25,915 nt of DNA from a virus (Duplodnaviria > Heunggongvirae > Uroviricota > Caudoviricetes): IMG/VR virus record IMGVR_UViG_2529292922_000015; one strand, written 5' to 3'. A program made the position numbers. Shown piece by piece: positions 20,501 to 25,915 of this stretch. Numbering within the stretch: the stretch's first letter is position 1; each line of letters opens with the position of its first letter.

Positions 20501-23500
20501 TACAACCGAGACAGCAAAGGCGAGCGTCATGTAATAGTTAACGGCGTCCTGATGGTCAAACAGGGCAAGAGGGGAAGACGATGAGACTCGAAAGCGTAGC
20601 TAAATTTCATTCGCCAAAAAGCCCGATGATGAGCGACTCACTACTGGCCACAGTTTATTGGTTTTCGTAACTGAGTCATTTTATTATTTTATTGCAACTT
20701 TTAATCTTTTATAGTGCGAAATAAATGGAGCTGGCATTCATTTCGCACTTTATGTTTTTGTTGGACTTATGTTATTTTGATTGAATTCAATTCAGTTAAA
20801 AAAAGAAGGTGATTGCTCCATTTATAAATGAATAGTCATCCCCTGTCTTGAATTCTGATGTTACTTTATTAAATGCTAGTGTGAAGGCTACAGGTGCATA
20901 CCCAATTGTTGCGCCAACTTGATATTCATCAACAGTTTTGTTTAGCGATACTGTTGTTTGTTTCGTCTGTATTGTTTTTCCTTCGAGAGTATAGTTGCGA
21001 TTGACATCTCGTCTTTCCATACCTGCAAAAATCTTGTATTTGAATCCGCTTGTATCGGACATATGCATTAAACCACGGGGAGCCAGCAGACCAAAGCCAT
21101 TATCCGAATTGAAGGTTTTATCATTACCAATGGCAATGGTTGCGCCATATGCTACATATTGAAATAAGTTTCCAGTAACAGCAGAAACTTCAGGGTATAA
21201 TCCAACATTAGCACCTAAAATATCCATACTTGGTGTCATGGATAGCATCCCTTTTACAGTATAACCGTAGCGATTCTCTATTTGATCATCCCATGCATGA
21301 TATTTTTCTGCCCCAATAATCTCATGAGCTTTATTTTGTACTTTCTGACCGCCTGCGTCGGGGCCAACAACACCTATGTCAGTACCTAATCGATAGCGAA
21401 TCCAGTCATTCGCAAGGGAGTTCCATTCAATACCAGTGTGAGTGTATGCACTAAAAGCTCTGTCTCCAGTTACAGCTGTGTTGTGTCTTTTATTACTGCC
21501 TGATGGAGAGTAAATATCTTGCGCAATATGGAGAGATAATTGGCTCGAGTCTGAGATATCGTGGCTATATCCCAGAAATAAGCCTTGTGAGTAATCATCT
21601 CTGTTTTCATGTTTATTGCCATAAATATCATTAAGTATTGGTTGAAACTTCCCTGCATCATCATTTGCTAATGATAATGCAAGGCTGTTCGCGATAGCTG
21701 AACACGTGGTAAATGACAGAGCAATAAAGACGCCAGCGATGACACTTTTTTTCATATGTTATTGTCTTCCTTTTTTTGAATGGTGCGCGTATTTTACATA
21801 CATGAGTTTGTAATACAAGGTGCGTAATCAATATGATGTTTTATAATTGCGTGAGACAATTGATTTATTCGTTTTTTATTGTGGTTTTTATTATCTTTTA
21901 ATGTAGCGGTGTTTTTATTAAGTGTGTTTGCGTGGTGTTTTATGTTTTTTATAATTTTTATTTTATTAAATTTAAAAGCATTAGTAATGGCTATTCTATA
22001 TAGCAATATAAGAACTGTTACAAAAAAAGGGGGCAATTACAGGTAGTTATGGATGATGAGTGAAACAGATATTGGAGAACCGGGGAATGAATGATGTCTG
22101 AGTCTTATATATCAGAACTCCTTCGCTGTCGCTGGGGGCTCCTGTGCTTATGTCGTTTCCCCGATTCGGTTTTGAACGATTACCGAATGTTGAAGAATTA
22201 TGCCAAAATATAGAAAGGATTTACTGCATGAATACCCAATATTTACAGTATGTTCGTGAGCAACTTATGGCAGCTACTGCTGACTTGAACGGAGCAACGA
22301 AAGGCCAGCTCGAAGCCTGGCAGGAGCATGCACAATTTGATACTGGTACATACAAACGAAAGAAGCCGCGCATTCTGGATGTGGTAACTGGCAAGATGAT
22401 TACGCTGGATAATACGCCGACTTCCGGTAAGCAGTCGTACGCAAAAGGTTCATCCATTGCTTTGGTCAGCCCGGTTGAATTCTCAACCTCTTCATGGCGC
22501 CGCGCGGTTTTGTCTCTCGATGAACATCAGAAAGCATGGTTGCTTTGGTGTTACAGCGAAAGCGTTCGATGGGGGCATCAGGTCACCATAACGCAATGGG
22601 CATGGAGCGAGTTTAAAGATTTGTTAAGTAACAGAAAAATTGCAGGTAAGACACTGGATCGCCTGAAGACGTTAATCTGGCTGGCTGCACAGGATGTGAA
22701 GAGCGAACTTGCAGGGCGTGAGGCCTATGAATACCAGACACTGGCATCATTGGTGGGAGTGACAACAAAAAACTGGTCCGAGACATTTACTGAACGCTGG
22801 GTTGCAATGAAGCACATTTTTCTACAGCTTGATAGTGATGCTTTATTGCTTGTGACGAGAACACGTTCAAAACAAAAGGCAGCATTTTTACAGCAAAATA
22901 TTGCAAAACTGGATTAAAAGCCATATACTTCATGCAAATTTGGTATGTTGTAAAAAATGTATAAACCCGCTGCCGAGTGGGTTTTTTTTATGTCCCTGAG
23001 TTGTACTTGTACGGTAAACATGCTGGCTGCTATGTAATAGAGTTTTTTTAGCCTGTAACCTCTTGACGGCATTGAATTGCTTTTGTTATGAGTTGTAAGC
23101 CAATGTTATCATCTTGTATTGGGGTGGTTATGAAGGATGGTGCACTGCTCAGGAGTTCTTCACTTTTTATTGCCTACATGGGATGCCTTGGATGGGGGAG
23201 TGCTTATTTCTATGGATGGGGTACTTCTTTTTACTACGGCTTCACATGGTGGATTGTAGGTGCAGGTGTTGATGATGTTGCCAGAAGTTTATTTTTTGCA
23301 GTTATCGTCATTGCTATATTTCTTATCGGTTGGGGTATTGGTGTTGTATTCTTTTTCGCAGTGAAAAGAAAACATTCTATGCAAGAGCTAAATGTATTTC
23401 GCCTTTATTTTGCTGTGGAATTATTGTTTGTGCCGGCAATTATTGAGTTTTCTATATTGAGACAGAAGATTCAGGTACCTCTTTTGCTACTGTCAGCAGC

Positions 23501-25915
23501 GATTGCGCTGGCGGTTACAATTTCGATAAGATCTTATGGGCGATTTTTATCGGTATCATGCTTCTATGATAAGCCATTTATAAAAAAACATTTTTTTGAG
23601 ATTGTGATGATTGCTTTTGTGGCATATTTTGGGCTTTTTTCATTTCTGACAGGATATTACAAACCACAGTTTAAGAAAGAATATGAAATGATTAATTATA
23701 ATGATGGTTGGTATTATGTTCTTGCTCGTTATGATAATTGTCTGGTTTTGTCTACTTCTTTCAATGCAGGTAGTAAAAGGTTTGTCATTTATCAATCAGC
23801 ACAAGATAAGAATCTTCAGGTTGATATTGTAAGGACCAGAATTTAATTGGCTGCATAAATAATATTTTAAGTTGCAAGTTGGCTATTCGTAGGAATAGAA
23901 CCTTAGGCATGCTGAATGCGTTTTCTGAACATTGTTTTATAAACTGTGTCTGCTTGCTGTTGTGATCCTGCTTTTAGTGATGGTGATGATGGATTTCACC
24001 AGCAGGATAATGTTGGTACTGACTGATGGCGCTCTGGTCTGCGGCATTGTGGTATTGCTGTGGCCGATGATGAAAGAACAGAATGAATAATTCTTGACTT
24101 TTTTGTTTACTGTTTATTAAAAAATCAACCGCATGGTGAATCCTCCTTGGAGGGGCTAAATGATCGAGTTTTAAGGGCACGTAGCGAGTTCTGTTTGATC
24201 ATTGCAGAACTTAGCGGGAGGCGCCATGCGTACATCACTAGTGTTATTCCTTTTATCATTTTCCTTGTGAGTTCTGGCTGCGCATTGCGCAGCCTTTTTT
24301 TTATGACCTGCCACTGGCAGATGGTCATCCTGTGATTTGATTCCGCTTCCGGCTTTTTAACTCTGTTCCTCTACACGGGAGAAATTCGATGTCGATTAAA
24401 CATTACGATGTTGTCAGGGCGGCGTCGCCGTCAGACCTTGCGGAAAAGCTGACACACAAACTGAAAGAGGGCTGGCAGCCATACGGCGGACCGGTTGCCA
24501 TTACGCCGTACACACTGATGCAGGCGGTGGCTATTGAAGGAGAGCCACAGGTCGGCCCTTCATCTGAGCCGGATTGGTACTACGTCATCGTACTGGCCGG
24601 GCAATCCAATGCCATGGCTTACGGTGAAGGGCTTCCGCTGCCGGATTCATACGATGCTCCGGATCCGCGCATTAAACAGCTGGCGCGCCGCAGTACAGTG
24701 ACGCCGGGCGGGGCTGCCTGCAGATATAACGATATTATTCCGGCTGACCACTGTCTGCATGATGTGCAGGATATGAGTACGCTGAATCATCCGAGGGCTG
24801 ACCTGAGCAAAGGGCAGTACGGCTGTGTCGGCCAGGGTTTACATATTGCCAAAAAACTGCTCCCGTATATCCCGAATAACGCGGGGATCCTGCTGGTACC
24901 ATGCTGTCGTGGTGGTTCGGCATTTACCCAGGGCGCGGAGGGGACATTCAGCGAATCCACGGGGGCCAGTCAGGATTCGGCACGCTGGGGGGTGGGCAAG
25001 CCGTTATATCAGGATCTGATTTCCCGCACAAAAGCGGCATTGCAGAAAAATCCCAAAAACGTTCTGCTGGCCGTCTGCTGGATGCAGGGTGAGTTTGACA
25101 TGAGCGCCGCCACCCACGTACAGCAACCTGCGCTGTTTACAGCCATGCTGACACAGTTTCGTGCTGACCTCTCCGTGTTTAACGCGCAGTGCCATGGTGG
25201 CAGTGCTGCAGATGTGCCGTGGGTTTGTGGTGACACGACGTATTACTGGAAAAATACATACGCTACCCAGTACGACACCGTGTACGGCGGGTATAAAAAC
25301 AGGGAGAGTGAGGGCGTTTATTTTGTGCCCTTCATGACAGACGGTAACGGCGTCAATACCGCCACTAACGCGCCGGCAGAAGATCCGGATATTCCGGTAT
25401 CAGGATATTACGGTGCGGCATCGAGAACGAATGGAAACCAGGTATCATCAAACCGCCCGACACATTTCAGTTCATGGGCGCGCAGGAGCATTATTCCGGA
25501 TCGTCTGGCAACCGCTATTCTGAACGCAGCCGGGCGCACCTCAGCCTTCATCAGTGGTAAGGCACCGGAAATCAAACCCTCGTCCGGCGGCAACACGCCA
25601 TCGGGTCCGTTTGCAGATACGTCCGTTCGCACAATCTCCCTGCTGCCGGCAGCCGGAGAGGCTGCTGCGCAGGGCTGGAGCATTAAGGATGGCGGAATTC
25701 AGTTGTCAGATGGTGTATTTAAGATCACCAAGCAGAGCAATAAAACCTGGTCCCTGACGCATCCGGTGGATGACGCAATTACCCTGCTGACACAGGGCGG
25801 CAGACTGACCTGTAAGTTCCGCCTGTCAGGCGCACTGACCAACAATCAGTTCGGGCTGGGGATTTATCTGTATACGGATGCTCCCGTTCCTGATGGTGTG
25901 GCGATGACGGGTACC

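Follow-up and report, generated by a model that had tools for sequence, protein, structure and literature searches.

A TfpB/STM1630-family membrane protein gene, preceded by a promoter-like element, in the cargo slot behind a phage-82-type Q gene

The stx genes of Shiga toxin (Stx) phages are a classical moron of the interval between the antiterminator gene Q and the lysis genes of lambdoid phages. Here we describe what occupies this interval in a 25,915-nucleotide stretch of viral DNA (IMG/VR virus record IMGVR_UViG_2529292922_000015, Caudoviricetes; "the window" throughout): directly behind a phage-82-type Q gene lies an AT-rich gene for a membrane protein of 238 amino acids. Like the classical lambdoid morons, it has a deviant base composition, lies after pR'/tR', has a predicted terminator of its own and is present in some but absent from other syntenic phages; a putative promoter of its own, besides Q read-through, would add to the likeness. 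Unlike stx, it encodes a membrane protein, to which the toxin is unrelated. We suggest, with slightly better than even confidence, that it belongs to a self-promoted moron cassette for an inner-membrane protein of the TfpB/STM1630 family that would serve the lysogen at the periplasmic face and be dispensable for phage growth.

Neither the gene nor its family is a discovery of ours, and its occurrence in phage 434 and Escherichia coli O157 was already recorded. CPT_434_68 of phage 434 (OL657226, annotated as a "putative membrane protein") matches at 99.2% identity in tblastn and is effectively the same gene; its surroundings share with the window the order lpxR (minus strand), ylcG, Q82-type Q, terminator, membrane gene, DUF3927 gene and SASA esterase gene, followed by the lysis cassette, and the right-hand module of the window is 99-100% identical to that of 434. 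Prophage Sp3 (CP-933K) of O157:H7 has a near-identical module, in which the product of ECs_0816 (strain Sakai, "membrane protein") is the identical protein WP_001302581.1; a literature search for that accession found nothing. Both records differ from our reading in a protein start nine codons earlier, giving 247 amino acids, and Sp3 has no esterase annotated between DUF3927 and the holin. What we add is a corrected start, the promoter-like element, synteny with four Q families, the links to STM1630 and to Moraxella TfpB, and expression decoupled from Q. A first-pass annotation, made from the sequence of the window alone, had missed both the catalogued family and the presence of the gene in phage 434.

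Salmonella STM1630 resembles the window gene in length, architecture, AT-rich horizontally acquired setting and possession of its own promoter, but is chromosomal, lies between the effector genes steB and sseJ without a Q gene, and has a different promoter, about 175-245 nucleotides upstream. That promoter has been mapped, H-NS is bound, and the gene is expressed in medium that induces Salmonella pathogenicity island 2 (SPI-2) and in macrophages (PMC6785131 S1 text), together with the SPI-2 virulence genes (PMC6785131). Its deletion caused no growth defect in LB in strain D23580, and a 4/74 mutant showed modestly higher intramacrophage replication (PMC6785131). Hypermotility reported for an STM1630 deletion (PMC4219756) was not confirmed with clean deletions (PMC4534456), and we rejected it as a functional lead.

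Moraxella TfpB (JGI "protein tfpB", 261 amino acids) is encoded between type IV pilin genes, in a pilin inversion locus. It shares with the window protein the family and the predicted architecture, including an N-terminal AY.YGWG..Y.GYPWW motif and a C-terminal beta domain, but is only 25% identical, has a C-terminal extension, and belongs to a pilin locus and not to a prophage. The "TfpB" of the searchable literature is an unrelated Acinetobacter ATPase, and we found no functional study of the Moraxella protein there. Elsewhere the relatives sit among other genes: the Haemophilus ducreyi member between a sigma-32-like gene and a large downstream open reading frame, those of Mannheimia and Neisseria among housekeeping genes, and that of Klebsiella aerogenes between a SRAP-domain gene and a gene for an ImpB/MucB/UmuC-type polymerase. 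No pilin gene is annotated beside the membrane gene in a near-identical E. coli locus. A type IV pilus link as a general property of the family was rejected, since only the Moraxella members adjoin pilins.

The argument concerns the following features of the window.

22228..22917, plus strand: phage-82-type antiterminator Q gene, 229 amino acids from the start given by the Prokaryotic Genome Annotation Pipeline (PGAP); PF06323, PHROG 304 and identity to phage 82
22901..22929, plus strand: putative pR'-like late promoter, TTGCAA-17 nt-TATACT, overlapping the Q stop codon; consensus scan
22963..22992, plus strand: tR'-like intrinsic terminator with a 9-bp stem (22963-22984), a 4-nt loop and T8; terminator scan, RNAfold -14.2 kcal/mol
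23063..23092, plus strand: sigma-70-type promoter-like element, -35 TTGACG (23063-23068) and extended -10 TGT-TATGAG (23084-23092); conserved blocks
23130..23846, plus strand: TfpB/STM1630-family inner-membrane protein gene, 238 amino acids, five predicted transmembrane helices and a C-terminal beta domain; PF27470 on all homologues, alignments, ratio of nonsynonymous to synonymous substitution rates (dN/dS), AlphaFold2

The membrane gene is real and under purifying selection. An open run of 238 codons has a chance of about 7e-8 at the gene's composition and dN/dS against close alleles is 0.07-0.27, which together establish a coding gene; the family alignment bears out the same 238-residue, AT-rich frame that the first-pass annotation had proposed. 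Its GC content is 36%, as against 46% for the whole window and 48-49% in the region of the Q gene. The longest open frame runs from 23088 to 23846 (252 amino acids), and PGAP, the phage 434 record and ECs_0816 all begin at ATG 23103. We prefer ATG 23130, because the family alignment supports that methionine: all full-length homologues down to 45% identity begin there and are 237-238 residues long (alignments of 28 and 48 homologues). It is preceded by a Shine-Dalgarno-like GGGGTGG at 23120-23126, while ATG 23103 would leave only a few bases between the predicted transcription start and the start codon, and has no backing from the family alignment. Judged by these alignments, the database start is probably nine codons too long, and 23130 the corrected one.

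Family membership is consistent across sources. A precomputed PF27470 assignment in a large protein database is present on 107 of 107 homologues, the 99%-identical cluster included; a second annotation source names PF27470 "TfpB", and newer PGAP annotation has "STM1630 family protein". An enteric profile aligned to Moraxella tfpB by hhalign with 99.5% probability (E 3e-23, 228 columns), and BLASTP gave 45% identity over all 238 residues (E 7e-80) to an STM1630-type protein, P0074. The latter is STM1630 itself, judging from its position beside sseJ (425 bp, divergent) and from a published deletion primer encoding NSSMLLAYLGGLGWG, which matches the protein. The window protein has the family architecture throughout: a length in the range of about 230-260 amino acids, the motif A-Y-x-Y-G-W-G ... 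Y-G-F/Y-P-W-W, five transmembrane helices and the C-terminal beta domain. The local copy of Pfam-A, from which the PF27470 model is apparently absent, returned no PF27470 match and only DUF4501 at E 0.21, and NCBIfam release 20 gave no match.

The family is small: in a database of 1.84 billion proteins, clustering at 50% leaves 72 representatives. It is distributed over Enterobacterales, Pasteurellaceae, Neisseriaceae and Moraxella. Its most distant subgroup comprises proteins of Klebsiella, Enterobacter and related genera, all annotated "hypothetical". The window allele is found in 692 of 5426 complete E. coli genomes, and some allele in 1197 of them.

The multi-pass membrane protein with a small C-terminal domain that the first-pass annotation had envisaged is also what topology prediction gives. 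A first AlphaFold2 run on a shallow alignment reached a mean predicted local distance difference test score (pLDDT) of 58.8; with a deeper alignment pLDDT rose to 79.9, with a predicted template modelling score (pTM) of 0.74. Together with a hydropathy scan, the model places five transmembrane helices at residues 10-36, 47-78, 89-111, 116-136 and 149-181, followed by a five-strand beta domain of about 55 residues (184-235; AlphaFold2). The mean number of lysines and arginines is 2.8 and 1.7 in loops 2 and 4, and 0 and 0.5 in loops 1 and 3, which favours an N-in, C-out topology; the N-terminus is thus predicted to lie in the cytoplasm and the beta domain in the periplasm. A cysteine pair conserved within the beta domain of one subclade fits a periplasmic location.

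Conservation is strongest in an aromatic and glycine-rich motif, AYxYGWG..YYGFPWW, at what would be the periplasmic (outer) end of the first transmembrane helix. The positions conserved family-wide are only Ala, Tyr, Gly and Phe, and the lack of any catalytic-type residue among them argues against an enzyme. We therefore picture a binding protein, most likely not an enzyme, that would engage its partner on the periplasmic side of the inner membrane.

Neither fold nor profile matches pointing to a function were found. The PHROG families matched (1521, 14371, 17164 and 3985) are each of unknown function, and searches of PHROGs, Pfam and the Protein Data Bank, by sequence and by fold, revealed no homology to a holin, spanin, endolysin or virion protein; a structural or lysis role was the homology that the first-pass annotation had named as fatal to its proposal. 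The membrane gene is dispensable for phage growth and is not a lysis or structural gene. Phage 434B, in which the whole region is replaced by DLP12 DNA, still forms plaques (PMC9119081), and lambda-type and other Q82-type phages lack the gene.

The upstream gene, called Q-like in the first-pass annotation, is a phage-82-type Q (Pfam PF06323, E 1.7e-91; PHROG 304, anti-termination protein Q-like) with 90.9% nucleotide identity to phage 82 Q (X92588). Homology to other Q82-type phages runs about 33 bp past the Q stop codon and then ends (BLAST). Both hexamers of the putative late promoter and the initial transcribed region are kept in other Q82-type phages with different downstream cargo. The short hairpin terminator noticed in the first pass has the 9-bp stem and T8 run listed above, and recurs in other Q82-type loci as AAACCCGC...GGGTTTTTT. 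Behind the same promoter/terminator module, other Q82-type phages carry transfer RNA (tRNA) genes or a holin and no membrane gene, and differing genes after one conserved module make this a variable cargo slot, as had been proposed. Positions 22924-22993, from the late-promoter -10 region to the terminator, also resemble Rfam STnc240 weakly over the full model (27.5 bits, E 0.17). In Salmonella prophages STnc240 may correspond to the same kind of short, terminated leader RNA made from the late promoter.

The association of the membrane gene with Q extends over four unrelated Q families. Among 186 fetched loci, mostly viral contigs and so a biased sample, a Q gene stands directly upstream on the same strand in 166.

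PF06323 (Q82 type): 80 loci
PF03589 (lambda Q type): 74 loci
DUF1133: 7 loci
PF06530 (quuD type): 5 loci

Between the terminator and the gene lies an element with the pattern TTGAC, 14 variable nucleotides, TTTGTTATG; in the window the candidate promoter blocks are TTGACG and TGTTATGAG. Over 14 distinct upstream regions TTGAC and TTTGTTA.G are invariant, with spacer and flanks variable. The element lies about 60 nucleotides upstream of the ATG and is kept across E. coli alleles that are only about 55% identical in protein; it is also kept behind all four Q families and in copies on plasmids of enterotoxigenic E. coli (ETEC) that have no Q, where the other upstream DNA is unrelated. Such invariant blocks are the trace expected of a sigma-70 promoter with an extended -10, and from them we infer promoter activity. 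The 434 record annotates a CII-binding site that covers the -10 region; we rejected it, as its second TTGY half-site is not kept in other alleles.

Public RNA-seq data from enterohaemorrhagic E. coli (EHEC) are consistent with an independent transcription unit. In them the presumed O157 orthologue reaches high expression without induction, and it co-varies with its downstream neighbours and not with Q or the late genes. Expression is probably not confined to prophage induction, and a promoter of its own appears to be present.

Two further features complete the proposed cassette.

23932..24090, plus strand: DUF3927/TciB-like gene for a small membrane protein of 52 amino acids, probably co-transcribed with the membrane gene; PF13064 E 3.4e-14, PHROG 1470
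24101..24305, plus strand: STnc100-like RNA region, likely the end of the cassette; Rfam RF02076, terminator scan

The DUF3927 gene follows the membrane gene in 96 of 100 loci with the 99% allele. The RF02076 match covers the full model length but scores 41.4 bits (E 3.5e-7), short of the gathering score of 47; within the region a strong terminator is predicted (stem 24276-24294 plus T8). The STnc100-like region overlaps a 62-codon open reading frame that is annotated as a membrane protein in the phage 434 record.

In the explanation we favour, the AT-rich cassette would consist, in order, of its own sigma-70-type promoter, the tfpB-like gene, the DUF3927/TciB-like gene and the STnc100-like region with its terminator (about 24305), placed directly behind the phage-82-type Q late-promoter/terminator module. 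It would receive two inputs: one from its own promoter, which would be on in the uninduced lysogen and is apparently more active in stationary phase, and one from Q-antiterminated read-through after induction. The most likely beneficiary would be the lysogen, through an effect on envelope or host-association fitness, and not virion assembly or lysis.

Several points weigh against this explanation. A consensus scan for promoters did not rise above chance, with 6 sites against 7.4 expected in shuffled sequence, and the -10 hexamer is weak (TATGAG or TATGTA), without the usual final T; the conserved blocks could alternatively be an operator or an RNA element. At least one allele, L169, which lies directly behind a Stx-like operon, lacks the motif. 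The topology is a prediction, the benefit to the lysogen is deduced from context, and the phenotypes of STM1630 are weak or were not reproduced (PMC4219756, PMC4534456, PMC6785131).

The alternative that survives best, though we regard it as unlikely, is a late gene under strict Q control, off in the lysogen and acting in the lytic cycle, for instance in superinfection exclusion in the doomed cell or in a pre-lysis change of the envelope. The gene is on the late strand, 138 bp past a strong terminator behind a conserved Q82-type late promoter; the presence of Q upstream in 166 of 186 loci, whatever its family, suggests that the position is selected; and allele L169, with no promoter motif of its own, would suit such a gene. 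Against it stand the promoter-like element between terminator and gene, the high uninduced expression of the presumed O157 orthologue, uncorrelated with Q and the late genes, and homologues outside phages that have their own promoters (STM1630; chromosomal genes). In Sakai Sp3, moreover, the annotation shows neither immunity nor replication genes from bet to ninG; if these have been lost, Q-driven expression from that prophage is unlikely.

The first-pass annotation had itself described expression as Q-dependent and restricted to induction. In light of the conserved element and the Q-uncorrelated expression this is partly right: read-through from the late promoter past 22963-22992 needs Q, but the promoter-like element lies downstream of that terminator, and the restriction to induction is not supported. 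A strict late-operon gene would be expected to follow Q and the late genes in expression and to have no promoter in between, and both the O157 RNA-seq data and the promoter-like element at 23063-23092 disagree with that.

Superinfection exclusion need not be tied to the lytic cycle. HK97 gp15, P22 SieA and T4 Imm are small prophage inner-membrane superinfection-exclusion proteins, to which the window protein bears a general resemblance, with no sequence or profile similarity in the PHROG and PADLOC searches. In their style, a lysogen-expressed exclusion or anti-phage protein might block DNA entry, possibly together with the DUF3927 protein; we think this rather unlikely. It would fit the small size, inner-membrane location and predicted periplasmic domain of this prophage-borne protein, its place in an apparently self-promoted moron cassette, the co-located gene for a TciB-like small membrane protein, and the frequency of the gene in prophage-rich pathogens (the 1197 of 5426 complete E. 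coli genomes). A PADLOC scan matched 0 families, however, and no PHROG annotated for superinfection exclusion was matched; many members are single chromosomal genes among housekeeping genes (Pasteurellaceae, Neisseriaceae, Klebsiella), outside defence islands and prophages, and the Salmonella member is co-expressed with SPI-2 virulence genes. Superinfection exclusion and envelope modification, the candidate functions offered in the first pass, were guesses without homology support. Since no member matches a defence profile and many are ordinary genes on the chromosomes of animal-associated bacteria, we consider a general role in the envelope or in host association more likely than superinfection exclusion.

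The neighbours of the gene raise the question of an accessory role. Two further genes flank the Q gene and the cassette in the window.

20796..21755, minus strand: lpxR, lipid A 3'-O-deacylase gene, upstream of Q
24389..25915, plus strand: SASA-family carbohydrate esterase gene, 509 codons open to the window end; next in the cargo series ahead of the lysis genes

LpxR is regulated by Ler/Pch in EHEC according to the literature. The linkage between lpxR and the membrane gene is close in the window, with only ylcG and Q between them, and lpxR is present in 39 of 40 Q82-type loci with the 99% allele. On the chromosome of Citrobacter rodentium (L194) a split lpxR (2863-3823, 75% identical to the window protein) is directly divergent from a TfpB-like gene (4001-4717, 65%); the flanks of this site, an alcohol dehydrogenase, a chemoreceptor and a LysR-type regulator, are of the same gene types as those of the STM1630 islet.

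In 11 of 70 loci a diverged allele, about 55% identical, adjoins an AB5 toxin gene, and several of these have the order Q, TfpB-like gene, toxin, holin.

L145, L137 and L171: Stx2-type A subunit downstream of the allele
L169: Stx-like A subunit/operon upstream of the allele
L159: pertussis S2/S3-like B subunit beside the allele
L165: EltA-like gene beside the allele
L010-L014: heat-labile enterotoxin (LT-I) genes eltAB beside the allele, on ETEC plasmids

The promoter-like motif is retained in the copies on LT-I plasmids, a hint that the DNA flanking eltAB may have descended from a lambdoid late region.

These neighbours, together with the founding member inside the Moraxella pilin inversion locus, would fit an accessory factor for a neighbouring function, be it a partner of LpxR or a helper in the release or assembly of AB5 toxins or of type IV pilin-like systems. 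Such a role is distinctly doubtful: toxin and pilin genes are absent from the window, lpxR is missing within 4 kb of the same allele in 57 lambda-Q-type loci, the Pasteurellaceae and Neisseriaceae members are not beside pilins, and chance adjacency is to be expected in a hot spot of moron recombination. The lpxR pairing and the AB5 adjacency are worth mention but too weak to build on. A hitch-hiking or decaying open reading frame without current function, for which one might cite the truncated copies common among database clusters and the robust phenotype reported for no member, is very improbable given dN/dS of 0.07-0.27, a full-length architecture kept from Enterobacterales to Moraxella and an identical protein maintained in hundreds of genomes.

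The window as a whole covers the left and the centre of a lambdoid prophage integrated at ybhC, the lambda attachment site, and is closest to a prophage of enteropathogenic E. coli E2348/69. It carries a lambda-type integrase, a Rad52-type recombinase, an IS21-family insertion, an S24 repressor and a primase-helicase. The IS21-family element (8964-10765, plus strand) forms a higher-GC stretch in the early region and encodes an IstA-like protein of 340 amino acids with an rve domain and an IstB of 260 amino acids (PF01695, E 8e-112). To the left of lpxR, 20581-20670 (plus strand) encodes an N-terminal antiterminator fragment, annotated by PGAP and in the phage 434 record, whose frame breaks just before lpxR; its first 20 codons (MRLESVAKFHSPKSPMMSDS) match the N-terminus of lambda Q. 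The fragment looks like a recombination scar, the lpxR-ylcG-Q82 module having replaced a lambda-type Q. At the other end, the esterase gene, a SASA family member by the phage 434 annotation, is intact to the window end; E. coli E2865 has it frameshifted and labelled DUF6645. In related loci the lysis genes form a unit of their own farther downstream.

Returning to the self-promoted cassette that we favour, a broader and quite improbable extension would make TfpB/STM1630 an envelope module of animal-associated Gram-negative bacteria, its periplasmic domain controlling a surface or secretion process. The module would have been captured repeatedly, by the lambdoid post-Q slot, heat-labile toxin plasmids, a Salmonella effector islet and the Moraxella pilin locus, and would constitute a new class of lysogenic-conversion factor. 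If so, it might act in lipid A remodelling with LpxR, or in the release or assembly of AB5 toxins or pilin-like structures, and about one in five complete E. coli genomes would carry such a conversion factor.

In E. coli, 1197 of 5426 complete genomes carry an allele of this family, which sits in the slot of stx and other toxin genes. Phage 434, its natural derivative 434B without the region and the Salmonella STM1630 mutants are ready experimental handles. For late-region prophage cargo of this apparently self-promoted kind, silence in lysogens is not to be assumed.

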